This document shows positions 20,555 to 51,979 of a stretch of DNA of 64,000 bases, one piece after another. This DNA comes from Candidatus Babelota bacterium (GTDB lineage: Bacteria; Babelota; Babeliae; Babelales; JAHIUU01), in NCBI GenBank assembly GCA_018817025.1, contig JAHIUU010000001.1, forward strand, positions 6,852 to 70,851. The letters are read 5' to 3'. The position numbers were made by a program, and so were the translations under genes. Position 1 is the stretch's first letter; every line of letters begins with the position of its first letter. The notes beneath the pieces are model-generated. The model ran no database searches. It was not told the DNA's origin and saw only the letters and a list, made by a program, of their open reading frames with translations.

Positions 20555-21732
20555 CCTTCGTGGGTGATCACAAAGACATCTTCAATCCGAACCCCAATGT
20601 TCTCTTTAGGAAAGTACAATCCAGGCTCTATCGTAATAACATCACCAACACCAAGCGGAATACCTAAATCACCAACATCGTGCACATCAAGACCCAAGAA
20701 GTGCCCTATTCCATGGACAAAATACTGTTTAAGCCCTCGTTCTTCCAAAAATTGCTCGGCCATGTGATGTAAGGACCGCTCAGGCACAGCTGAATTCTGC
20801 AAGAAGGACCCCGGTTTTGCCCGTGATGCGATATATGTTTGTAGTTCTAGAACAATATCGTAAACTTTTTGCTGGCGATCGGTAAACAAACCTGAAACGG
20901 GATAGGTCCTCGTCATGTCTGCACAATAGAGGCCAACTTGTGCACCAATATCAACAACCACAAGATCGCCTTTTTGCAACTTTTTGTCGCGATCCATGTA
21001 GTGCAGTACTGTGCTATTTTTTCCAGCCGCAACAATCGAGGGGAAAGCTATCTGCGCATGCTGCTTCGTAAAAACACGCTCTATCTCAGCCTGTAACTCA
21101 TATTCATACATGTCAGGCTTTATAGTCTGTGCAACAGCAAGATGCGCTTTTTTCGTCACCTCAATCGCTTGAGAGAGCAGCTCAAGCTCATGGTCGTCCT
21201 TTTTTCTGCGTAGCGACGCAACCATCGGTGAAATATCTGCAACCTGCTCCGCAATAAGACTCATACACGAGAACAAATTTTCAAATCGATGGATAGGGAA
21301 AAAGTACGAGTCATTTGATTGGTCAAGTAATGTTAATAGTAGGCCCTGCTTACCAAGATAATCTTTCAGATCTTTTATTACATTTTCATACTCATCTTCA
21401 TAAAAAAATGGCTTCATGTAATAGCTTTGACACGGCTTACCTAACGACTTCATGTCAAAGCTATGGCCCCCCAATGATGCCGTGGTTGCCCATTGTTCCC
21501 GTGCTCGACTGTATTTTGGAAGAAAAAGTTCCTCCCGGCCATCCCAATACAAGCAAGTGACCGCTCCCGGCTCATTAATCCCAGTAAAATAATAAAACGA
21601 ACTCTCTTGCCGAAAGATATATCTTGAATCTTCAAAGCCAGCAAAAAAAACCACAACCCCTCGTTCTACCTCTGGATACATCTCATGAAGCATATCAAGT
21701 AACAACGCTCTTCGTTTCTTGTACATAATCAC
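20539..21732 (-). CDS. pepP: Xaa-Pro aminopeptidase (M24B family)
   Basis: It has an AMP_N-type block (FRQESSFYYFTGINEPGAV) and M24 metal-ligand blocks (VVDIGAQVGLYCADMTRT, HGIGHFLGLDVHD, TIEPGLY, IRIEDV). Confidence 0.88.
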   Translation of the reverse strand: MIMYKKRRALLLDMLHEMYPEVERGVVVFFAGFEDSRYIFRQESSFYYFTGINEPGAVTCLYWDGREELFLPKYSRAREQWATTASLGGHSFDMKSLGKPCQSYYMKPFFYEDEYENVIKDLKDYLGKQGLLLTLLDQSNDSYFFPIHRFENLFSCMSLIAEQVADISPMVASLRRKKDDHELELLSQAIEVTKKAHLAVAQTIKPDMYEYELQAEIERVFTKQHAQIAFPSIVAAGKNSTVLHYMDRDKKLQKGDLVVVDIGAQVGLYCADMTRTYPVSGLFTDRQQKVYDIVLELQTYIASRAKPGSFLQNSAVPERSLHHMAEQFLEERGLKQYFVHGIGHFLGLDVHDVGDLGIPLGVGDVITIEPGLYFPKENIGVRIEDVFVITHEGCKKL

Positions 21733-24053
21733 CTTTCATAGCCTTCTGGCGCCCGATATATCGGCAACCTCTTGAACTTTTGCGCAAATGATCCGATCGA
21801 TTCCAATCGAAGAGAGAGTGTTAATGCTCGCTCACTTTTCCAATTGCCATACTGTCGATACCTCTTCTCCTCCCATCCAATCGAAATTCCCCAACAATGT
21901 CCCTTATAGTCAAAACAGACATGGTGTAGCATCGGTTTCATCGCATTGAATAACGGCAACGCATGCTTATGTTTTGAATAAAACTTTCCATTATAGGTAA
22001 CATTCACAGAATTGCCCAACGGAACCGAGCAGCCAACCATCACAAACGTAGAAATATCAGAAAACAGTTCCCTCTCCCGCCTTACCGCATCTTTTTGATA
22101 AATATATCCTAAAAAAAGATTCCAATTATCTCTCGCAAAGCTCATCATTATTTCGTACGTAGCCAAAGAAAAATTTTTCCAATCATACTCCTGCGTCAAT
22201 GAAAGATCAAAGTCTTTATATGTACACTGTGTTTGTATATGTAGGGGTGCAAGATGCTTCTGGCTATACGATCTACGTAACGGGAAGATGTCTGAACGAT
22301 TGCAAAAATCATATCCCTGCGTTACCACCAAATCCAAACAAAAATCGTTCAGACGCCAGTTGTTTCTCAAGATAAACACAAGTCTGTTTTCCGGATAAAA
22401 ACGATCAAACATATCAATGTGATACCAATGATCCTGGTATATCTTTGGCAGATAGCCCCAGCGAATTATCGGCTGCATGTGGTGCATATATCGATAGTCC
22501 TCATGGCAAAGCGTCTGCTCTGGAAATGCCCACTCAAAACCACACCGGGCAAACAATCTGCAACGAGAACCCACGGAACTTGTCTTGCAAACATTGCTTC
22601 GAAGCTGCAGTTGCGGCTCAACGAAGCCTGTCATATGCTGGTTCCAAACGGTCCAGGACGACTGCGCACGGCCCTTATAAACAAACCGCGCTGTATCAAT
22701 ATCGATGGAAGGCGTTGTCGTAATAGTCCGGTCAACCAACTCGCCAACATAAAACTTTTCGACTTTTTTAGATTCCAAAAATGCATAGTCAAACAACATA
22801 TCATGCCGATAGTGCAAAAATGGTAGAAGCTTGTAATAGCTTGTGCCCCACTCATAGTGAGGCAGATATGTTATAGAAACCTTTTCTTCGTGCTCCCTTT
22901 TCTTTGCCACCAAGCAACGCTCTTCTTCTACAAACTGATTACTCAAGCTTCGTTCAGAATGTGCCACAAACTGCATCGAATGCTTTCTATCATGATATCG
23001 CTGAATGACAGAGTTATAGAACGAATCTTCAACCAACTGCGCATCATTTAAAAACTGATATCCAAGTCGTTTGTCAGTCCCAAAATCGAACCGTATAAGA
23101 CTCTGAAGTCTATGAGTTCCTAGCGCAAACGGCTGAAAATAGTTCCCCTGGACCCAGTACCGCTTGTCGGTTGCTTGAACCAAGCGACCATCTCGTTCCA
23201 ACCACGCGTCCCATTCTTCCGCATAATGACTATCGATAACAATAAAATTATCACTGCTCTTCGCCCAACGAAATTCGTCCGACAGAATAAATCCCTTCTT
23301 TTCAACCAAGTTAAATCCAAACGTCGTATCACAATGAGAACCAAGCAGCCAGTAATATTCTTGGCGAAAGCCAAACCCAAGCTCTGCATCAAACGAAAGG
23401 CGAGGCATCAAAAAACCAGAACCCGCTCGATTTTGCAACGGAAAAACTAATACTGGAAACACAAAAACAGGAATTTGCATAATCTTAAAAAGTAAGCCTG
23501 AGGCTTTAAGAACAGAATTTTTATATAAAACAGCGTGGCTCGCGGTAAAAGACCAATGTGGTGTCGAGTGGTCACAGGCGGTGTAGGCTAACCCCTCCAT
23601 CTCCCAAGTTTGGTCATCCAATTTTTCTGCTTTCGCAGAAGATAAAAAACCTTCTTTGACATGAATCTTAATATTTTTCGCACACCCGGTCTTTGTTGCC
23701 AAACATAATTCGAGAGAATCGGCTAACATAACAAAGTCTGGGTTTTCAAACTTGACAAACGCATTCTCATCACACGTCGCAACAACGGTTTGCCTCTCTT
23801 TATCCAAAACCACCCGATCTGCCCAAATGTGCACTTTATAGTCAAGCAAAATTTCGACTTCTCCATCAAGAAGCACCTGATTTTTATCAGTTATTTTTTG
23901 ATGTGTCGAACGAACAGTAAGAACTTTTATCGAATCAAAAGCGGTTTTTACCCCTGGATGAATGGGAATAGACGTGAGCGCAAAAGCAAAAAAAACCCAA
24001 ACTACTGGCCATCCAGTGGTCGTATGATGGCTCGTGCTTGGCTTCCTCATCAA
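21729..24053 (-). CDS. lptD: LPS-assembly outer-membrane protein LptD
   Basis: 774 aa with a signal peptide. The block AYTACD..PHWSFTASHAVLYKNSVLKASGLLFKIMQIPVFVFPVLVFPLQNRAGSGFLMPRLS...YYW parallels E. coli LptD (YTTC..W.I.A...PVFY.P...FP...R.SGFL.P...YYW). Confidence 0.85.
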   Translation of the reverse strand: MMRKPSTSHHTTTGWPVVWVFFAFALTSIPIHPGVKTAFDSIKVLTVRSTHQKITDKNQVLLDGEVEILLDYKVHIWADRVVLDKERQTVVATCDENAFVKFENPDFVMLADSLELCLATKTGCAKNIKIHVKEGFLSSAKAEKLDDQTWEMEGLAYTACDHSTPHWSFTASHAVLYKNSVLKASGLLFKIMQIPVFVFPVLVFPLQNRAGSGFLMPRLSFDAELGFGFRQEYYWLLGSHCDTTFGFNLVEKKGFILSDEFRWAKSSDNFIVIDSHYAEEWDAWLERDGRLVQATDKRYWVQGNYFQPFALGTHRLQSLIRFDFGTDKRLGYQFLNDAQLVEDSFYNSVIQRYHDRKHSMQFVAHSERSLSNQFVEEERCLVAKKREHEEKVSITYLPHYEWGTSYYKLLPFLHYRHDMLFDYAFLESKKVEKFYVGELVDRTITTTPSIDIDTARFVYKGRAQSSWTVWNQHMTGFVEPQLQLRSNVCKTSSVGSRCRLFARCGFEWAFPEQTLCHEDYRYMHHMQPIIRWGYLPKIYQDHWYHIDMFDRFYPENRLVFILRNNWRLNDFCLDLVVTQGYDFCNRSDIFPLRRSYSQKHLAPLHIQTQCTYKDFDLSLTQEYDWKNFSLATYEIMMSFARDNWNLFLGYIYQKDAVRRERELFSDISTFVMVGCSVPLGNSVNVTYNGKFYSKHKHALPLFNAMKPMLHHVCFDYKGHCWGISIGWEEKRYRQYGNWKSERALTLSLRLESIGSFAQKFKRLPIYRAPEGYER

Positions 24054-29887: not shown

Positions 29888-30648
29888 AAAACTTCGAGCT
29901 TCCTATAACACTCTCCATATGGCTTATCGGACGCACACTGCTTTGCAACATGTCTATTCGAGACTTTAACTAACTCAATAAAGCTATGGTGTTCATGCGG
30001 AAAAGCAGGATCAAGTATCTGAGATGCATGAAAAGAAATAAGCTTTGTTTTTTCGGCCATTGCATGCTCATCAAAAAACAAAGTCATATCACACTGACTC
30101 TTAGCATAAACAGGATCCCACACTCTATACCCAAAAACTTTCCCCCTGAAAGAAATATTCTTAAGTGCCTGAAGCGTAAGAACATGAACCGTTGCATGCG
30201 TTTTATGAGGATCGCTCATTTCATCAATTAAAAAAACCACGTCTGGATTAATGTAACGAATTGACGACTCAATAATTGCCAGATCGTTACGCGCAAGTTT
30301 TTTTTCTTGCTTCTGTTTTTCGTAAAATGGAAGATTCCAAAAAATCGATTCTATTCCTAGATAATCACAAGAAGCAAGCGCTTCACGCCTGCGAATCTGG
30401 CTCTTGATCGCTTGTTTTTCTCTATCCGACCGATCGCTAAAGCCAGAATCAACTTTTTGCGCAAACCGATCAGTTACCCCATTAAAACCGCTAACGGCAT
30501 ATGCGACGGTAATTGAATCAGGCACAAGCGATAAAAGAAGAGCCCCACACCCAATTACGTCGTCATCGGGATGTGGAGCTACAAAAAGTATTTTCTTACC
30601 TGCTAACTCGATCATCTTTTCTTTGAGCCATACATTTTTTTGAGCCAC
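29884..30648 (-). CDS. PIG-L/LmbE-family N-acetylglucosaminyl deacetylase
   Basis: Contains ILFVAPHPDDDVIGCGALLL and DPHKTHATV, the metal-binding motifs of the PIG-L family. An alternative ATG at 30615 would give a 4-nt overlap with the upstream gene. Confidence 0.72.
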   Translation of the reverse strand: MAQKNVWLKEKMIELAGKKILFVAPHPDDDVIGCGALLLSLVPDSITVAYAVSGFNGVTDRFAQKVDSGFSDRSDREKQAIKSQIRRREALASCDYLGIESIFWNLPFYEKQKQEKKLARNDLAIIESSIRYINPDVVFLIDEMSDPHKTHATVHVLTLQALKNISFRGKVFGYRVWDPVYAKSQCDMTLFFDEHAMAEKTKLISFHASQILDPAFPHEHHSFIELVKVSNRHVAKQCASDKPYGECYRKLEVF

Positions 30649-31205
30649 AGCTTAGAGAATTTTTTTGAAACTCTTCTCAGTAAGCCAAATCCTTTCAACC
30701 AGCTGATCATATCTTCTAGAGTTCGAGCTTCCTGTTCAGCGCCTCCTGGCTTGGTAACTGGCCCCATTCCACAAAATTCAGTGGTTGGCGTCCACTCACC
30801 CTCTTCGAGAGGCTGCGCAAACATAATTTTGAAACCAAACGGATCTTTGACCGAGAAAGAAACAACACCCCAAGGCTGTTTTTTCGGTTGCTCGAGAATC
30901 TCTACTCTTTTCCTTTTGCATCGCTCAAGATACTTGTCAAATCCCTTTTTCATCTCAACATAAACCCCGGCGCCTCGACCAGCACAATGCTTGACAAGAC
31001 TCATCTCTGCAAGTTCTCCTGAGGACGGAGTTCGAAATCCGATGAAGCATTTTCCCTTTTTAAGCAATACATACTCAATATAACTTCGACCGTCTTCCTT
31101 TTTTGTTGCTAACTCAACAACATCAAAACCCAACTTTTCACTATAAAACTTTGCTGCATTCTCTACCGACTCAACAACAAACATCGGCATACAACTCTTC
31201 ATCAT
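30612..31205 (-). CDS. VOC (glyoxalase/bleomycin-resistance fold) family protein with a basic C-terminal tail
   Basis: Contains PMFVVESVENAAKFYSEKLGFDV and QPWGVVSFSVKDPFGFKIMFAQP, which is typical of VOC proteins. A ~55-aa extra tail ends KKFSKLWLKKMYGSKKR. Confidence 0.68.
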   Translation of the reverse strand: MMKSCMPMFVVESVENAAKFYSEKLGFDVVELATKKEDGRSYIEYVLLKKGKCFIGFRTPSSGELAEMSLVKHCAGRGAGVYVEMKKGFDKYLERCKRKRVEILEQPKKQPWGVVSFSVKDPFGFKIMFAQPLEEGEWTPTTEFCGMGPVTKPGGAEQEARTLEDMISWLKGFGLLRRVSKKFSKLWLKKMYGSKKR

Positions 31206-37115: not shown

Positions 37116-37221
37116 AGATCCCTCTCCAAAATTATATTGCCACCAATGGTGACTATCGGAAAACATGCCCTGAGTATAGAGAAAAAGTTTGGCTTAATAA
37201 ATATTTTTTACAACAAAACCC

Positions 37222-37251
37222 TTGCTAAACAAGAAATAAATACACTATTAT
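37222..37251 (+). promoter_or_regulatory. Candidate promoter for the large secreted-protein gene (TTGCTA-18 nt-TATTAT)
   Basis: -35 TTGCTA (37222-37227) and -10 TATTAT (37246-37251) in the 204-bp divergent tolQ/large-gene intergenic region. The context is very AT-rich, so specificity is low. Confidence 0.3.
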
Positions 37252-37319
37252 AAAAATAATATAAGACTGGCGCGCAAAATAATGCCAGATTGAATGTCTT
37301 TATCAGAGAGGGTAGAACG

Positions 37320-40300
37320 ATGAAAAAGCTTGTCACACTTCTTCTTATAACTTTCACAGCCGTTTCCTACGAATCTAATGCCGCACCCACCCAGGCAAAT
37401 ACCGCATTCCCCGGAATACACAATCAACAACTCTTGAACTACCACCTTGAACCATTGAGTTCCAGGCTCGGGGGAGGGGTTGTTAACCAGTTCTCTATTG
37501 GCAGCAAAAACAATATTTGGGGAACAACAACCAATCACAAGATTGTGAAATGGGATACCAATAACAAGAAGTGGGTAACCGTTCCAGAAAAACAAAGTAA
37601 GGGAAGGCTCGACATGCTTTCCGTCGCCCCTGACGGTAGAATGTGGGGTGTCAGCGCATCCCAAATAATCTACCACTGGCAAAATAACCAATGGAACAGG
37701 TATGCAGGAAAGCTTAAAAAAATCTCCGTTGGAAGCAAGGGCGGCCACCACGTGTTCGGGGTCAATGCAGCCGGCAGGATATACCACCACCCGTGGGCAA
37801 GTAAATGGGGTTATGTCCCGCTTAAGGATGAAGATACAGGCACAAACAAAATCGCTAAAGACATCTCCGTAGCCAGCGACGGTTCTCTGTGGGCAATATC
37901 AACTGATGGCCTTATCTATAAGAATTCGGTTCATAAGGATGCTGCATATAACAAACGAATCGCTCCTGGAAAATGGACGCTAATCCCTGGAAAACTGGAA
38001 CAAATAAGCGTTGGAAGCAGATTACGAATATTTGGAACAAATAAAAATCACATCGTCTTTCGAAGAAACGTCGGACGAGATAACTGGGCCGCTATACTAC
38101 AAAATTTTAAATCGATTGACGTCGCTGAAGATGGAACGCTCTGGGGAATAGGAAAAAACAACAAAATCTACGAAGTTCATGATACGTTCTTTGGAAACCG
38201 ACTATCAATCGTTGGCGGTATGCGTTCGGTTGGCGACCTAAACGCGGTTTATGATCACTACCGAACAAAAAAACATGAACATCCATTTAACGAATACAAA
38301 GGAACCTCGCCGTTTCTGGAAAAATACTCTTGGTCATCATGGATAGCCCTTCAAGGCGATGAGCGTCTCAAAAATGATATCGAGTTTCTAAAAAACCAAC
38401 GCGACACACTCCAAAAATCTTATGCTGAACGTGCGCTTATTACAAGACTAAAACTAAAATACCTCGAACGTCTCGCCCGATATGATCACAAGAACAAACG
38501 CATCTATGAAGCGTTTATAAATCTCCCTTATCTAGGGCACTACCTCCTAGAACTAAAAAAACTTGTGGATAACAGAAATGAGCTGGTCTCCTACCCCATA
38601 TTAACACGCGTAGAACCAGTAAAATCCAACAGTTTGCTCCCTCTCCAGTCAGCAATTACAACCATTATTAGTCGAGCAAGCGCCCTTGTCGACGAAACAA
38701 CAGGTGATTTTAGGTCATATACCTCTCTACAAAGATATTATTTAAGAAAACTCTTAATCCCTAAAACAGAGGCTGAACGAAAAAATGGAAGTCAAGACAT
38801 CAGGCTTCCTGATCTTCTCGAAGATGCAACGAAACTACTCTCTCTCAGTGACGCGCTGGCGCAAGCGCGTAACAAGTTCGATGCTTCGATCAGCAACCCT
38901 GAAGCAAGCAGCTGGCTCAAAGATTACGAGCAACGGGCAACCTGGATAGAAAAAATTCGTTATCTTGTTGAAAGCATGGCTAGCCCAGAGTTCACCGAGA
39001 TCCTCAAAACAGACAATAAAACCTCGCTCGAAAAACTCTTCAAAGATGTCAAAAGTTTCTTGTACGCAACAACCGAATATGGTAGCCGTAGATCACTTCT
39101 AACAAGCTGGAGCACAAAGTTCTCACAAACTGAGCGTTCGAGACTAGAAGCCTTGATCGAAGCCGGGTTAAATAAGATAGAGAAAGAAAAAGAAAGGATC
39201 CAAGAAACAACCGTCAAGACGTTTATGGGGCTACTCGCAGAGACAAAAGCGCAACAATTTCTCGTCTCAGCGGTTAGCTCTGGTGAAAACCAAGATTTGC
39301 TCTTTAAAAATCTGAAAACACTGAGCGAACAAGTAGCCTCTCGCCCTCTCAGTGAAGCCGAAGTATATCTTGAGTTGATCAATAAACTTGAAGATTTTTC
39401 GGCCAAGGGATATTTTAACTTCGATGTCCCAACAAAAAAAGCTCTCCTCGAGGGGTATATCGACGAAGGAAAAAAGCTCTATCTCTCCATTCTTAAAGAA
39501 ATTGGAACCAGAGATAGAGTCATAGCCGCCGCAGGAGCCGCAGCTTCTTCCGACCCAACACAGCAAGAAAAATATGAACAGTGGCTTAAAACAACGACCG
39601 CCATCACGGAAAAACTTGTTTCCAAGACAAGCCGGTCACCCGAGGAAACAACCGCCCTTAAAAATCTACTCCCCCTGCTTGACGACCCAACACGCGGGCT
39701 CAAGGAACTCTTTCCAGCACACACCAAAGCTAAAATTTCCAGCCTCATCACCAAGCTCAAAACGGTTGTACCTGCGGCTAAAACAAAAGTAAAAATCGTT
39801 GGCTCCATCGTCCAGAAAGTTAGCCCTGAATCTCTGACAACAACACTTAAAAGCCTACATGAAGCATTTAACGATTACTCGGCAAGAATTCATGCGAATC
39901 AAACCCTACAGGCGCAGTGGTTAAGCGATCTCGAAGTTATCGTAAAAAACAGAATCATGCTTCCCAACCAAAATCAATTTGATAACTTAATCAATCTTAT
40001 TAAAGAGACAAATGATGCAGACTGGCTTGCTGAAGAGTGGTTCACCCGTTTCACACCAGCACAGCAAAGTCAACTCAAAAATCTCGTCGCTCAAGGTGAA
40101 CAACCAATTGACTATAACAGCATGTTTTCCTACTTCAGAGAGAACAGATCCCAGCTCTCCCCACAAGTACTAATCGATCTTATCGCACTTCTCATTGAAC
40201 ACCCGTCTTCAAAGCTCAGTAAAAACGAAAATCAACGAGCATGGATCATACGGGAAGCCAAAAACGAGGCCAATAAGCGGTTTAGCCAAGAAGAAAAAGA

Positions 40301-40730
40301 AAATCTGAACCGAGTACTATCTGAAACAGAAACACCAGAGCCAACTTTAGCTCAGCCACCCGCTGCACGAACAACCGGTGAACAAACACAACTCTGGAGA
40401 AATCAAGTCGATAACTGGAACCGACAGATACTTGACTGGCGAGCGGCGGGAATTGCGACAATGGACCAACCAACAGCAGAAAAAACTAAATCTGATATGG
40501 CAAACGTCAAATCGAAAATGGATCAACTGAGTGACCAGGATCTGCCTCCTGACCTACAAAACCTTCTTGATGCCGGCATGACTGCGCTATCGGGCCTGCA
40601 AACGCAGGTGCAAAACCGAATCAATCAGGTCACACCCAAACAAACACCACTGCTAAGAAGACCTGCTCGAGGGAGAGTGATGAGTCGTGTGCCAACAACA
40701 AGAGTGCGTCGTGGTGGCGTCAGGAGATAA
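37320..40730 (+). CDS. Large secreted protein: signal peptide, six tectonin-like propeller repeats, ~850 aa unrecognised helical region and an Arg-rich tail
   Basis: 1136 aa from ATG 37320, with a GAGAGGG SD upstream. The signal peptide is MKKLVTLLLITFTAVSYESNA/AP. See the repeat feature and findings. The start is trimmed 10 codons relative to the ORF track. Confidence 0.8.
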   Translation: MKKLVTLLLITFTAVSYESNAAPTQANTAFPGIHNQQLLNYHLEPLSSRLGGGVVNQFSIGSKNNIWGTTTNHKIVKWDTNNKKWVTVPEKQSKGRLDMLSVAPDGRMWGVSASQIIYHWQNNQWNRYAGKLKKISVGSKGGHHVFGVNAAGRIYHHPWASKWGYVPLKDEDTGTNKIAKDISVASDGSLWAISTDGLIYKNSVHKDAAYNKRIAPGKWTLIPGKLEQISVGSRLRIFGTNKNHIVFRRNVGRDNWAAILQNFKSIDVAEDGTLWGIGKNNKIYEVHDTFFGNRLSIVGGMRSVGDLNAVYDHYRTKKHEHPFNEYKGTSPFLEKYSWSSWIALQGDERLKNDIEFLKNQRDTLQKSYAERALITRLKLKYLERLARYDHKNKRIYEAFINLPYLGHYLLELKKLVDNRNELVSYPILTRVEPVKSNSLLPLQSAITTIISRASALVDETTGDFRSYTSLQRYYLRKLLIPKTEAERKNGSQDIRLPDLLEDATKLLSLSDALAQARNKFDASISNPEASSWLKDYEQRATWIEKIRYLVESMASPEFTEILKTDNKTSLEKLFKDVKSFLYATTEYGSRRSLLTSWSTKFSQTERSRLEALIEAGLNKIEKEKERIQETTVKTFMGLLAETKAQQFLVSAVSSGENQDLLFKNLKTLSEQVASRPLSEAEVYLELINKLEDFSAKGYFNFDVPTKKALLEGYIDEGKKLYLSILKEIGTRDRVIAAAGAAASSDPTQQEKYEQWLKTTTAITEKLVSKTSRSPEETTALKNLLPLLDDPTRGLKELFPAHTKAKISSLITKLKTVVPAAKTKVKIVGSIVQKVSPESLTTTLKSLHEAFNDYSARIHANQTLQAQWLSDLEVIVKNRIMLPNQNQFDNLINLIKETNDADWLAEEWFTRFTPAQQSQLKNLVAQGEQPIDYNSMFSYFRENRSQLSPQVLIDLIALLIEHPSSKLSKNENQRAWIIREAKNEANKRFSQEEKENLNRVLSETETPEPTLAQPPAARTTGEQTQLWRNQVDNWNRQILDWRAAGIATMDQPTAEKTKSDMANVKSKMDQLSDQDLPPDLQNLLDAGMTALSGLQTQVQNRINQVTPKQTPLLRRPARGRVMSRVPTTRVRRGGVRR
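37479..38177 (+). repeat. Six tandem protein-level repeats (26-48 aa) of tectonin/TECPR-like beta-propeller blade type
   Basis: Repeat cores: FSIGSKNNIWGTTTNHKIVKW, LSVAPDGRMWGVSASQIIYHW, ISVGSKGGHHVFGVNAAGRIYHH, ISVASDGSLWAISTDGLIYKN, ISVGSRLRIFGTNKNHIVFRR and IDVAEDGTLWGIGKNNKIYEV. 'SVG' and 'SVA.DG' types alternate. Confidence 0.7.
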
Positions 40731-42225: not shown

Positions 42226-42301
42226 GGGGCTATAGCTCAGTTGGTAGAGCGCATGAATGGCATTCATGAGGTCACCGGTTCGATCCCGGTTAGCTCCACC
42301 A
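42226..42301 (+). tRNA. tRNA-Ala (anticodon GGC), CCA encoded
   Basis: Hand-folded cloverleaf: GGGGCTA TA GCTC AGTTGGTA GAGC G CATGA ATGGCAT TCATG AGGTC ACCGG TTCGATC CCGGT TAGCTCC A CCA. It has the G3:U70 Ala identity pair and is 76 nt long. Confidence 0.93.
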
Positions 42302-48609: not shown

Positions 48610-49140
48610 TTAGGACCGCAAACTAAAAACAAAACCCATGCCCATCAAAAAAACAACTGTTAAACTCGAGGCTAGGACGCTTTTAAAAACGGAACGTCCT
48701 GGTCTCCTTTCTTCATCTTCATACACAACAATTTCCTGATTACTCGTCACAGGAGAAACAAACACTTCTTTCACGCATAAATGTTTGGGGTCGTGCGTAG
48801 CATTTTCTTTCTTAGTAGAATCTTTTACGTAAGTTTTTTGGACCAGATTTACTGCGCAATCTTTAACGAAACGCTCAAACTCTTCAGGATTAAAAAAAAC
48901 AATATTCTTCTTCTCAGTCACCTCTTCTCTAACCGGAAGCGCAAATATACTATCATCATCAGGACATTCTCGTATCTCTATAATTTCTTCGCTAGGCTCT
49001 TTTTTTCTGCAACCGTCCAGTTCTCCAAAGAATTCGTTCAGTGGCGTCTCTTCGTTAGGCTGTCTCTTCGTGTTCATCCCAAACAAAGCGCCTGAAACAA
49101 AAAATAAAACCGTTACGAAAAAAATTAACCTCTTGCTCAT
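48610..49140 (-). CDS. Hypothetical acidic protein with a signal peptide and a C-terminal TM anchor
   Basis: 176 aa from ATG 49140. It has MSKRLIFFVTVLFFVSGALFGM, a Glu/Asp-rich middle, and a terminal SVLASSLTVVFLMGMGFVFSLRS. The N-terminal motif is shared with the next gene. Confidence 0.55.
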   Translation of the reverse strand: MSKRLIFFVTVLFFVSGALFGMNTKRQPNEETPLNEFFGELDGCRKKEPSEEIIEIRECPDDDSIFALPVREEVTEKKNIVFFNPEEFERFVKDCAVNLVQKTYVKDSTKKENATHDPKHLCVKEVFVSPVTSNQEIVVYEDEERRPGRSVFKSVLASSLTVVFLMGMGFVFSLRS

Positions 49141-49150
49141 AATCTTGGTC

Positions 49151-49618
49151 CTACATATTAAGCGTACTATTTGTCGTGCCATTATTCATAGAACAATATT
49201 CCGGATGATCCTTAAAAAATTCACAGAGCTTCCCACAATAACCACCAACTTTTTCCTTCAAAGATTCATGATTACAGGGAAACTCTACTGCCATATCTGC
49301 TACCACAACAACCACCAAAACACACAGCCCCATAAAAAACACGACCTGTGCAAGAAGCAGCACATCGCCGATATACTTTTTGCATAACACCCGTCTTTTG
49401 CCATACTGCAAAGCGTCAGAAATCCTGCTGTTTTTATTTTTTTCCGTAAAAATCTCTTGGTCACTTGGAACAGAAGTATCATCGCCGGCTACTGGAACGA
49501 TATAGACACACGTTTCTTTAATAGTACCGTAATCCTCGGGTGCTCGCCCTGGCTTCATCCCAAAAGCACTCTGTCCAAACAATACAATACCAAACAGAAA
49601 CATAAGTATCTTATTCAT
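49151..49618 (-). CDS. Hypothetical single-pass membrane protein with a signal peptide and a Cys-rich tail
   Basis: 155 aa. It has MNKILMFLFGIVLFGQSAFGM, the TM LLLAQVVFFMGLCVLVVVVV, and the tail EFPCNHESLKEKVGGYCGKLCEFFKDHPEYC. Confidence 0.55.
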   Translation of the reverse strand: MNKILMFLFGIVLFGQSAFGMKPGRAPEDYGTIKETCVYIVPVAGDDTSVPSDQEIFTEKNKNSRISDALQYGKRRVLCKKYIGDVLLLAQVVFFMGLCVLVVVVVADMAVEFPCNHESLKEKVGGYCGKLCEFFKDHPEYCSMNNGTTNSTLNM

Positions 49619-49642
49619 GGTGCCCTAACTCCTAACTAATAA

Positions 49643-49882
49643 TTATTTTTTCTTTTCTATACCAAGAAACTCAATCCTGCGATACAGCGTACTCCGACTA
49701 ATCCCTAGAGCCCGTGACGCACGACGATAATTGTGACTGGTCTTTTCAAGAACAACCATAATTACATACCGCTCGACCTCATGCATGATGAGCGGATGAA
49801 TATTTCCCTTTTCATTTCTCCCTAAACTCTCCACCATTTTTGTTACCTCACAACCTAACAAATCATAAATCGAAACCGACAC
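49643..49882 (-). CDS. Fis-type helix-turn-helix DNA-binding protein
   Basis: 79 aa with a GTG start. The C-terminal NYRRASRALGISRSTLYRRIEFLGI is a classic HTH_8 (Fis/NtrC-type) motif. Confidence 0.65.
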   Translation of the reverse strand: MSVSIYDLLGCEVTKMVESLGRNEKGNIHPLIMHEVERYVIMVVLEKTSHNYRRASRALGISRSTLYRRIEFLGIEKKK

Positions 49883-49895
49883 AGTATTATCCCCA

Positions 49896-50888
49896 CTAAG
49901 AAAATTTGTTCAAAAAATAAGTACTATATAACAAATCAAACGAATGAAACGCCGAACCTTGCAACGCCCCTGTTTTAAATGCAAAATCGATACTGTAAAG
50001 CATTTGATGCGCACCCTGTAACTGAGTCAGACTACATTGTCTCCAATCGTAACGCAAAAACGATGCTGGCAAACGAAACGAAAACCGTCTTGCTGCCGGA
50101 AAATTATTCTGCTTTAAAAAGGTGACAACATAATGCGCCCGCCACAACTGCTCTGACCAATATGTTGTCCAGAATGGAATTGGATAATCGTTGTATCGCT
50201 CAGACCACAATGAAAAAAAAGTACGTTCCTGTTTTTTAAAAAACGCACTTGCAAGCGAAGCCAATGATAATTCAGGCGAAACCATTGCTGAAATATTTTT
50301 CTTTAACTCACCAAGGAAACGAATATTAGTAACCGCAAGATACTGCAGAAGCATACAGGCAATATCAAGTGAAACCGTCCCAGAACCTGAGACAATTTCC
50401 TGAACAGCGGCCAGCTTCCCCCCACTCAACTCCGTACCCAAAAAATTAAACAACTCCATTACCTCATGAAACGTCAATTCATTCTTCAACTCGACCATCG
50501 CTTGTGCCTGAGTCATTCGTTTGCGCACTGAGAGAGAAATTTTATGATCTAACGGGAAAAAGAACGCAATTGCATGTGGCCCACGATATAATGTCAAAAT
50601 CTCAACTAAGTCAGGCCCCCTTTTACGCTCTATTTTAACCAACTCGAGAAGATTTCCAAGCCAATAAAAAGAAGTATCTCCCAAAAAACTTTGCTCCAAA
50701 GTTTCCCAAAGCTGCTTTCTGTTTTCCAATCGAAAAGGACAAAGACTAACGATCTCTTGCTGCTTTAAAAAAGAAAAAAGCGTTTGAAAAAAGAAAAGTG
50801 GATACTGGTCGCCAGTAAAACAAATAACACGTTTATCGGTCCAAAACGTTTTATTTTTTGCCAGGGTTAAAAATTCTGATAATTTCAC
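49896..50888 (-). CDS. holA: Putative DNA polymerase III delta subunit
   Basis: 330 aa, the size expected for HolA. It lies immediately downstream of, and 4 nt overlapped with, an LptE-like lipoprotein gene, as in the proteobacterial lptE-holA arrangement. Only weak similarity is visible by eye (C-terminal LTQLQGAHQMLYSIDFAFKTG vs E. coli LRQAVQLLTRTELTLKQDYG). Confidence 0.42.
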   Translation of the reverse strand: MKLSEFLTLAKNKTFWTDKRVICFTGDQYPLFFFQTLFSFLKQQEIVSLCPFRLENRKQLWETLEQSFLGDTSFYWLGNLLELVKIERKRGPDLVEILTLYRGPHAIAFFFPLDHKISLSVRKRMTQAQAMVELKNELTFHEVMELFNFLGTELSGGKLAAVQEIVSGSGTVSLDIACMLLQYLAVTNIRFLGELKKNISAMVSPELSLASLASAFFKKQERTFFSLWSERYNDYPIPFWTTYWSEQLWRAHYVVTFLKQNNFPAARRFSFRLPASFLRYDWRQCSLTQLQGAHQMLYSIDFAFKTGALQGSAFHSFDLLYSTYFLNKFS

Positions 50889-51406
50889 TCGACACTCTTA
50901 AGTAAAAATGGTCTAAAGTATTGGTCTATTCTATACGCCTCTCGCTCAAACAACCGACAATATTCGAAATCGATAAAACCAGAATTCATCACATGATCCT
51001 TTGCTTTCGAAACCAACGTTGTAAACGAAAACAACCTTTGTGCGCACAGCTTCTCATTTCTATCAAACAATCGACACAACAAATCAATCTTCATCTTAAC
51101 AGAATACGAAAGCAAATCTGGCGATAAAAACTTGTATGGCGAGTCGTTTTTTTTCACCGTAACTTTTAAAACATGGCAATCGCCAAGTGTGTCAACAAGC
51201 TTGAATCCAACTCGATCGAAATGACACCACAACGCATCATAAACTATCGGTGAGAGGTTTTCAAATACCAGCTTATTTTCTGGCATCTCAAGGCACAGTC
51301 GAATCTCCTTTCCACCAAGAGAAGCTAGCTCTTTACTGCACGATTTGTGAAGACACGAGGGAAAGAAAAAGGCAATTAGTATGAAACCAACGATCTTTAT
51401 AGACAT
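50885..51406 (-). CDS. Putative lipoprotein, possibly LptE
   Basis: 173 aa from ATG 51406. MSIKIVGFILIAFFFPSC is a lipobox-like Cys following the h-region. Size and position upstream of the holA-like gene fit LptE. No sequence motif was verified. Confidence 0.3.
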   Translation of the reverse strand: MSIKIVGFILIAFFFPSCLHKSCSKELASLGGKEIRLCLEMPENKLVFENLSPIVYDALWCHFDRVGFKLVDTLGDCHVLKVTVKKNDSPYKFLSPDLLSYSVKMKIDLLCRLFDRNEKLCAQRLFSFTTLVSKAKDHVMNSGFIDFEYCRLFEREAYRIDQYFRPFLLKSVE

Positions 51407-51487
51407 GTTATCCAAGTCGTTACATGACATGCTTCAAGCAGGGTCAAAGAGCCAACGGCGATGAGCCCTATAACCTACAAAATCAAA

Positions 51488-51979
51488 CTAAAAAAACCAA
51501 CCAAAAAATCTTTTTACTATATTTTTAGATTCTTTATTACCCTTCTCGTAAACTTGATTAAAAGAATCAATCATATTTATTTCAAAGGGCGTACACAACT
51601 CAAGAAACTGTTCCGCCGAAACATTTGTTTTATTATAAACCAGAACAGCAAACGAATCGAAATTCAGGTGACTATAACAAAAACCATTTTTTAGTTCAGG
51701 ATATTGATCATTATAAACCTCGACCCCTAGCTCCCGAAGCTTACTATGGAGATATTCACCAAATTTAAGATAAGAATATGCATCGACTTTATCGAGAGCG
51801 GTTGCTATCTCATTACATTCTTTTTTATCAAATTTTAGAATACTATTAGCAGTTCTGGCCCACTCTTCAACCGAGCTTGCTTTATATAAACCGATAAGCA
51901 ATGTCTTAAACTCAGGCTGCATTCCGTAACTGGTCTGAAATAAAAAAAGAACAATAATAAAAGAAAAAAACTTTTTCAT
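51488..51979 (-). CDS. Hypothetical secreted protein
   Basis: 163 aa. The signal peptide MKKFFSFIIVLFLFQTSYGM is followed by a soluble mixed-charge sequence. I recognise no family. Confidence 0.5.
   Translation of the reverse strand: MKKFFSFIIVLFLFQTSYGMQPEFKTLLIGLYKASSVEEWARTANSILKFDKKECNEIATALDKVDAYSYLKFGEYLHSKLRELGVEVYNDQYPELKNGFCYSHLNFDSFAVLVYNKTNVSAEQFLELCTPFEINMIDSFNQVYEKGNKESKNIVKRFFGWFF

Follow-up and report, generated by a model that had tools for sequence, protein, structure and literature searches.

In silico analysis of a 64,000-nucleotide stretch of contig JAHIUU010000001.1 (Candidatus Babelota bacterium; the whole stretch is called the window below) revealed, at 37320-40730 on the forward strand, a gene for a protein of 1136 amino acids (aa), publicly annotated as hypothetical protein KKA53_00300 of a Candidatus Dependentiae bacterium (metagenome-assembled genome, MAG; 94-kb contig). 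The gene is divergent from tolQ-tolR-tolA-tolB in the window, an arrangement already described in an earlier sequence-only reading of the same DNA and seen again in the open reading frame (ORF) listing and in the public gene calls. Sequence comparison, together with AlphaFold2 (AF2) models, firmly shows a Sec-targeted modular protein that joins a tectonin head to a novel helical repeat and a disordered tail with a terminal -RR. The features are listed below, where HMM stands for hidden Markov model, pLDDT for predicted local distance difference test, and P0003 for the positional orthologue of the protein at locus L002.

37320..40730, + strand: coding sequence, 1136 aa and stop (ORF listing, public gene calls, Logan assembly)
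37320..37382, + strand: Sec-type signal peptide, residues 1-21 (MKKLVTLLLITFTAVSYESNA, followed by AP; read from the sequence, similar N-termini in P0003 and paralogues)
37476..38171, + strand: six-bladed Tectonin beta-propeller, residues 53-284 (Pfam PF19193, PDB 5fsb, AF2, Foldseek, blade parsing)
37476-37547, 37602-37673 and 37707-37784, + strand: blades 1-3, residues 53-76, 95-118 and 130-155 (blade parsing)
37848-37919, 37989-38057 and 38100-38171, + strand: blades 4-6, residues 177-200, 224-246 and 261-284 (blade parsing)
38220..38855, + strand: helical region of low model confidence with no detectable repeat, residues 301-512 (AF2 pLDDT 33-64, hhalign negative, loose alignment with P0003)
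38856..39167, + strand: helical repeat copy 1, residues 513-616 (repeat HMM E 2e-15, AF2 pLDDT about 90, kept in P0003 410-495)
39234..39470, + strand: degenerate helical repeat, residues 639-717 (repeat HMM E 0.1, non-significant alone; helical in AF2)
39516..39755, + strand: helical repeat copy 2, residues 733-812 (repeat HMM E 2.6e-10)
39834..40097, + strand: helical repeat copy 3, residues 839-926, with the invariant Trp W867 (repeat HMM E 3e-15, alignments, AF2 pLDDT about 90)
40125..40325, + strand: partial repeat and conserved helical segment, residues 936-1002 (...NQRAWIIREAKNEANKRFSQEEKENLNRVL; AF2 pLDDT >90, repeat HMM weak)
40377..40631, + strand: confident three-helix segment, residues 1020-1104 (AF2 model helices 720-743, 750-771 and 777-804, pLDDT 85-93)
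40647..40727, + strand: disordered polycationic tail, residues 1110-1136 (PLLRRPARGRVMSRVPTTRVRRGGVRR), ending in -RR (AF2 pLDDT <50, charge, P0003 alignment)
37222..37251, + strand: sigma-70-like promoter candidate of the gene, TTGCTA-18-TATTAT (consensus scan)

The ORF spans 37290-40730 with a TTG start and 37320-40730 (1136 aa, intact) with an ATG start. The ATG was favored because a GAGAGGG ribosome-binding site lies 7-14 nt 5' of it at 37320, because the public gene calls use it, and because a second, independent (Logan) assembly has the 1136-aa protein sequence unchanged. By sequence inspection, the N-terminus (MKKLVTLLLITFTAVSYESNA before AP) is arranged like a Sec signal (n/h/c), without a lipobox Cys, in line with the Sec signal peptide proposed earlier. 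The complete protein contains no cysteine (count 0).

Three lines of evidence, a profile hit, sequence similarity to a solved structure and the modelled fold, identify the head as a six-bladed propeller of the tectonin type. The Pfam Tectonin profile (PF19193) matched residues 56-250 with an E value of 6.2e-31, scoring 108 bits where the cut-off is 30. Among solved structures, Tectonin 2 of Laccaria bicolor was nearest in sequence (PDB 5fsb, phmmer E 2.9e-21), followed by carp fish-egg lectin. An AF2 model of the N-domain, computed from the single sequence, was all-beta (pLDDT 62, predicted TM score (pTM) 0.63), and its best Foldseek matches were 5fsb/5fsc (E 4e-15; TM score (TM), normalised to the target, 0.78-0.80), with fishelectin next. 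The AlphaFold check on the N-domain suggested in the sequence-only reading therefore gave the expected kind of fold, with Tectonin 2 on top, and the repeats which that reading had placed at 37479-38177 occupy essentially the same interval as found here (37476-38171), far beyond chance (E 6.2e-31). The architecture of TECPR1 (tectonin with DysF and PH) was not found, as Tectonin was the sole significant Pfam domain in the protein. Sugar binding by Tectonin 2 involves Asn (in WGVN), Tyr (in IY), Ser and Trp, site 6 being formed by Ser200/Asn216/Tyr222/Trp3 (PMC6359319). In our protein the contact Asn is retained in blades 3 and 5, and the Tyr in blades 2, 3, 4, and 6. A lectin activity of the propeller is plausible from these motifs.

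The roughly 840 aa C-terminal to the propeller were all helical in an AF2 model built from a small alignment (pLDDT 70.5, pTM 0.41), with confident blocks at residues 510-630, 840-1000, and 1020-1100. This part is rich in Leu, Lys and Glu and contains 3% Gly. Neither the region nor the repeat profile described below gave anything significant in Pfam, NCBIfam, PHROGs or PDB sequence searches. The earlier description of the C-terminal 75% as helical and free of known motifs thus agrees with the AF2 model and with the lack of a match to any curated family or solved structure. The same region had also been called unrecognisable, which no longer applies, as it contains a family-specific helical repeat of about 80 aa. 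The repeat profile was built from the tandem units of P0004, a 1919-aa relative introduced below, and then iterated; it covers 34 repeats with the consensus ...SxEx(R/K)xxW(L/I)xx(I/V)EYLxxNxxGxSxEELxxLxxLIxxI...FxxxxxxKLxxLIxxG and one invariant Trp. With the iterated HMM, three clear and two degenerate copies were found in our protein, two clear (E 3e-17 and 7e-19) and two weak copies in P0003, and 7 to about 18 copies in other proteins. Residues 835-1012 align with P0003 558-732 at 27% identity. At the position of the three-helix segment (1020-1104), the alignment places an acidic E/K-rich linker in P0003. No further copies were detected when residues 301-512 and 1003-1136 were compared to the repeat profile by hhalign, and a BLAST self-comparison found neither the internal repeats nor a paralogue within the window. 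Foldseek comparison of the C-terminal model against PDB and BFVD yielded no match with E <1e-3 and only generic helical-repeat noise (TM <0.25), this whole-chain search being insensitive for an 80-aa module. A recurrent sub-threshold match was observed to PF18363 (Pfam name 'Phosphoinositide phosphatase insertion domain') in 6 of the 34 repeats. On the query repeat it reached 14.7 bits against a gathering score of 28.5 and covered model positions 53-84 of 94, about one third, and summed over the whole of P0004 it amounted to 45 bits. This domain, we assume, derives from Legionella effectors. The PDB searches found no solved chain related to the repeat or to the PF18363 link. With a match both partial and below threshold, we do not assign the repeat to PF18363 and retain the similarity as a lead, not as a finding.

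The Arg-rich C-terminal tail mentioned in the sequence-only reading was confirmed, with a net charge of +8 over the last 20 aa. The tail is rich in Arg and Gly (...RVRRGGVRR), its last 27 residues are disordered in the AF2 model, and its end, ...PTTRVRRGGVRR, aligns with the P0003 tail ...TTTSTVRGGIRR. Among the 177 ORFs of the examined loci, 9 end in -RR, compared to 0.28 expected from composition, and 8 of these 9 are encoded divergent from tolQ. While a crude count of basic tails (net charge at least +5) did not separate signal-peptide proteins from others, the exact -RR end separated the tolQ-divergent proteins. Pfam and NCBIfam gave no match to LPXTG, PEP-CTERM, GlyGly-CTERM, the T9SS C-terminal domain (CTD) or an autotransporter barrel, and the last 60 aa contain no hydrophobic segment. 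Elsewhere in the window, a glyoxalase-family protein (30612-31205, - strand) carries a strongly basic C-terminal tail (...RRAAKKYSKLWLKK...) that is unusual for this enzyme family; the tail is conserved over distant Dependentiae, in the orthologous ORFs of L002, L004-L006, L009, L010, L014, and L017, with a net charge of +8 to +10 in the last 20 aa.

An exhaustive HMMER scan of 1.8 billion (1.8e9) representatives with residues 300-1136 returned two relatives only, P0003 (815 aa, E 2e-22) and P0004 (1919 aa, E 1e-8, nine stretches). The exhaustive scan was needed, as word-index homology searches with the full protein, the N-domain or the repeat alignment missed both relatives and retrieved at most the protein itself or a single tectonin-only protein. 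A metagenome scan with the alignment of our protein and P0003 gave tectonin-only proteins alone, without the helical repeat. Within these searches the family is small and restricted to Dependentiae. P0003 has the same architecture as our protein: signal peptide, tectonin, helical repeats and basic tail. The genes of our protein, P0003, and P0004 (window, L002, and L003) each lie directly divergent from tolQ-tolR-tolA-tolB-ftsH, and in the window and L002 the family gene is followed by a convergent gene for a CCA-adding enzyme. The description of the gene as an orphan was therefore overstated, given this positional orthologue and multi-domain paralogues in other Dependentiae.

At locus L003 an array of giant genes occupies the tolQ-divergent position (L003:5817-25760, ENA ERZ24794671 contig). 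One of them encodes a protein of 2416 aa, in which a signal peptide and tectonin are accompanied by many modules matching PF08931 (66 bits; Pfam 'lactophage receptor-binding protein head'), some 10 helical repeats and a C-terminal ...KRHIRR. A further protein of at least 1502 aa consists of helical repeats followed by a module resembling a receptor-binding protein (RBP) head. In another assembly, P0006 (1335 aa) and P0004 (1919 aa) together form one 3314-aa protein, P0007, in which a signal peptide precedes many RBP-head-like modules and then about 18 repeats, up to the end ...KKIRR; as P0007 is intact there, the split in L003 was attributed to a frameshift or an assembly error. The L003 giant proteins in general contain many tandem beta modules of about 90-100 aa matching PF08931, sometimes with tectonin, and then 7-18 helical repeats. 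We defined the family by a signal peptide, at least three copies of the 80-aa Trp helical repeat, a basic disordered -RR tail and a tolQ-divergent gene; all these traits are found in our protein and are common also to P0003, P0004/P0007, and the L003 2416-aa protein. Judged from these architectures, the heads are interchangeable, tectonin and/or lactophage receptor-binding modules being carried on the same repeats and tail.

TolQ was then used to retrieve the same position from GTDB representative genomes. In MAGs of more distant Dependentiae/Babeliales, with TolQ at 43-58% identity, this position often holds arrays of large proteins whose N-termini resemble signal peptides. L005 encodes two helical-repeat proteins with the tails RRRGGRGGRGSARR and ARGRGRGDRGRGR; both are basic-tailed, the 521-aa protein of this locus ending in -RR and the 1351-aa protein in ...RGRGR. 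L017 has a tectonin protein ending in KKGGGRR, and L010 (2152-7963) has tectonin and PF12248 proteins with Lys/Ala-rich tails. Large PF12248 ('Methyltransf_FA') proteins with signal-peptide-like N-termini, encoded divergent from tolQ, also occur in L006 (1712-5077) and L007 (6441-9722); across these three loci PF12248 stands alone or is combined with tectonin. PF12248, which we take to be a beta-sandwich module, may be a further exchangeable head type. Unrelated genes occupy the tolQ-divergent position in L004, L008, L009, and L012.

Our protein and P0003 share 23% identity (1136 vs. 815 aa). The 15 syntenic neighbours compared between the window and L002 reach 47-86%, among them TolQ (77%), TolR (84%), FtsH (80%), TolA (56%), and the CCA enzyme (66%). 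By these values the gene is by far the fastest-evolving in the syntenic block. Its GC content (0.444) and its GC content at third codon positions (GC3, 0.425) are the same as those of the surrounding genes. There is therefore no sign of recent transfer from a host, and recent horizontal transfer from a eukaryotic host was rejected on these grounds. Tectonin-only relatives without the helical repeat were present on diverse metagenome contigs (GC 0.35-0.57). With these relatives and the native GC and GC3, the earlier label of tectonins as 'mostly eukaryotic' is uninformative here. GC skew is uniformly and strongly negative across all 64 kb (-0.08 to -0.29) and most genes lie on the - strand, which together fit a single replichore; the gene studied here is among the minority on the + strand.

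Both hexamers of the promoter candidate at 37222-37251 are retained at L002, as TTGATA and TATATT. Sigma-70-like sites are not more numerous in the region than in shuffles, so that the candidate is weakly supported. Beside the tolQ start, an intergenic block at 37169-37213, (C)TGAGTATA(G/A)AGAAAAAG...CTTAATAAA(T/C)A(T/C)TTTTTACA, is near-invariant in the window, L002, and L003, and the remaining intergenic sequence diverges around it. This block is probably the tolQ promoter or 5' leader. The last 11 nt of the gene studied here (40720-40730) also belong to the convergent gene for the CCA-adding enzyme (PolyA_pol). The 557-aa ORF listed for the latter is an over-extension through the tRNA-Ala(GGC) gene at 42226-42301, the public call being 466 aa. 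Further away, a run of five small ORFs (155-206 aa) at 48610-51979 (- strand) gave no significant Pfam match, and several have signal-peptide-like N-termini; they are typical Dependentiae secreted or membrane ORFans. A 773-aa protein (21729-24050, - strand) showed a weak but above-threshold LptD_2 match (31 bits vs. 22.5). An LptD-like gene in the window implies that lipopolysaccharide (LPS) would be exported to the outer membrane in this organism.

Several known systems resemble parts of the protein. Tectonin 2 (PDB 5FSB/5FSC) shares the six-bladed propeller, blades of about 35-45 aa, the ISxG...WGxN...IY cores and about 29% identity; however, it is a stand-alone protein of about 226 aa with six near-identical O-methyl-sugar sites, while the propeller studied here heads a secreted protein of 1136 aa. 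The fish-egg/tachylectin-type lectins (PDB 4RUQ/4RUS) are of this propeller family too (sequence E 1e-4, fold TM about 0.72) and are likewise extracellular, but they are animal innate-immunity proteins without a helical extension or cationic tail. Like the receptor-binding proteins of lactococcal phages (PF08931), which carry an exchangeable head on a stalk, the L003 paralogues join many saccharide-recognising heads to the same helical repeats and -RR tail; our protein itself lacks the PF08931 module, and no phage genes are nearby. Ebh of Staphylococcus aureus is a giant surface adhesin with FIVAR/GA repeats, a signal peptide, tandem helical modules of about 70-80 aa, a positive C-terminus and a C-terminal transmembrane anchor. 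It may be likened to the present family, which also combines a signal peptide, helical modules in variable number (3 to about 18) and a positive C-terminus; no sequence or profile relationship was found, and our protein lacks a transmembrane anchor. Substrates of type IV (VirB/D4) secretion carry disordered, positively charged, Arg-rich C-terminal signals. The extreme C-terminus of our protein is likewise disordered, Arg-rich and positive, but the N-terminus carries a Sec-type signal, and no type IV secretion system has been reported for the phylum Dependentiae. Given the Sec-type signal, the protein was rejected as a type IV substrate.

Dependentiae are a phylum of obligate parasites of protists. 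We favor, with a probability of roughly 50%, that the protein is an exported host-glycan-binding attachment protein, with a lectin head, a helical stalk and a cationic tail that would hold it on an anionic (LPS) surface. An exported glycan-binding adhesin or effector, as the sequence-only reading had put it, is still the best description of the sequence and model evidence. Sec would carry the protein over the inner membrane, and it would leave the periplasm most plausibly by type II secretion; no dedicated exporter other than this system and Sec has been reported for Dependentiae (PMC4776705). Such an export agrees with the many ORFans with signal peptides that Dependentiae are reported to secrete (PMC6561590). 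The propeller would then bind a glycan on the surface or vacuole of the protist host, the helical repeats would serve as a spacer or stalk, and the polycationic tail would keep the whole protein attached, by non-covalent contacts, to a partner protein or to an outer surface made anionic by LPS, whose presence the LptD-like gene in the window implies. The quick turnover of sequence and heads would reflect adaptation to host surface glycans and make the protein a determinant of host range or attachment. What argues for such an outward-facing role in host recognition or attachment is the modular architecture, taken together with the exchangeable heads, the variable repeat number, the fixed address and the fast divergence. 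Function, sugar specificity and the role of the tail are what we infer from these features.

Several points speak against this attachment role. The signal peptide was called by eye and not by a predictor, and the N-domain was modelled from a single sequence (pLDDT 62), with blades 5 and 6 modelled poorly. The Asn and Tyr sugar contacts are retained as a pair in one of the six blades only (blade 3), so that the predicted lectin activity and its specificity should not be assumed, and the activity may be weakened, changed or gone. No structural match from Foldseek against PDB and BFVD identified the helical region as a rod (pTM 0.41), Pfam and NCBIfam revealed no known surface-anchor or sorting domain in the protein, and retention on LPS through the tail is purely an analogy. 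The conserved place beside tolQ may reflect general synteny only.

The main rival, possible though on balance unlikely, is a soluble effector secreted onto or into the host cell (vacuole lumen, cytosol or nucleus), whose repeats would bind host proteins or lipids and whose Gly/Arg tail would be a host-directed element, acting perhaps in RGG-box-like RNA binding, nuclear or nucleolar targeting, or membrane penetration. The tails of relatives indeed resemble eukaryotic RGG/GAR motifs (the two L005 tails given above) or histone H1 (KKPAAKKAAVKK in L010), the gene is fast-evolving, and Dependentiae were reported to secrete many signal-peptide-bearing ORFan effectors (PMC6561590). The recurrent PF18363 match would point in the same direction, but it covers about a third of the model below threshold and corresponds to no solved structure. 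Moreover, a route into the host cytosol is not known for the phylum, where only Sec and type II were reported (PMC4776705), and the multi-head giant paralogues with phage receptor-binding modules resemble surface fibres rather than effectors acting inside cells. As an extension of the attachment role, the -RR Gly/Arg tail might be a new signal by which Dependentiae sort or anchor proteins, perhaps in connection with Tol or LPS, and might display swappable heads (tectonin, phage-RBP-like, FAMeT-like) on stalks of the new repeat, with the hypervariable locus beside tolQ as host-range determinant; we regard this as tentative and rather unlikely.

The absence of a recognisable domain for outer-membrane translocation or anchoring, next to a Sec signal, would also suit a structural protein of the periplasm or envelope with a functional link to the Tol system, comparable to accessory proteins encoded alongside tol-pal; its propeller would bind the cell's own peptidoglycan or LPS and its cationic tail envelope polymers. 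Although the gene adjoins tolQRAB in divergent orientation in several Dependentiae, many other genes of the block are syntenic too, so that adjacency to tolQ needs no functional link, and the position differs in gene content or lacks the family in L004, L008, L009, and L012. A housekeeping partner in the envelope would be expected to evolve at the pace of TolA, TolB, and TolQ (56-77% identity), whereas the family diverges far more (23%), its lengths range from 815 to 3314 aa, and heads homologous to phage receptor-binding domains suggest outward-facing recognition. Given this divergence rate and head swapping, an envelope role linked to Tol is improbable. Very improbable, finally, is a secreted lectin directed against other microbes or non-host particles, which would bind LPS or O-methyl-glycans for competition or aggregation. 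Tectonin 2 of L. bicolor and the lectins of horseshoe crab and fish do bind bacterial LPS or O-methylated glycans in defence, but the binding residues are mostly diverged in our protein, and the Dependentiae in culture have minimal genomes and an obligately intracellular, parasitic life, no antibacterial lifestyle having been reported for them (PMC6561590, PMC4776705).

Tectonin propellers and lectin-headed adhesins are already known kinds of protein, and that an obligate parasite should have a secreted protein that evolves fast is unsurprising in itself. Not described so far, in the libraries and searches used, is the combination of the 80-aa helical repeat, for which no Pfam, PDB or Foldseek counterpart was found, with a conserved cationic -RR tail and a hypervariable tolQ-side locus. 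If the protein were just another of the numerous ORFans that reduced parasites secrete, a better annotation would be the only gain. Possible uses are the prediction of host range, a new repeat domain, perhaps a new surface-retention signal, and a bacterial tectonin for studying glycan specificity. Thanks to the fixed address beside tolQ, the family can be retrieved from any Dependentiae MAG. The locus therefore offers a concrete candidate for host recognition or attachment in Dependentiae, a widespread and almost uncultured phylum of protist parasites.

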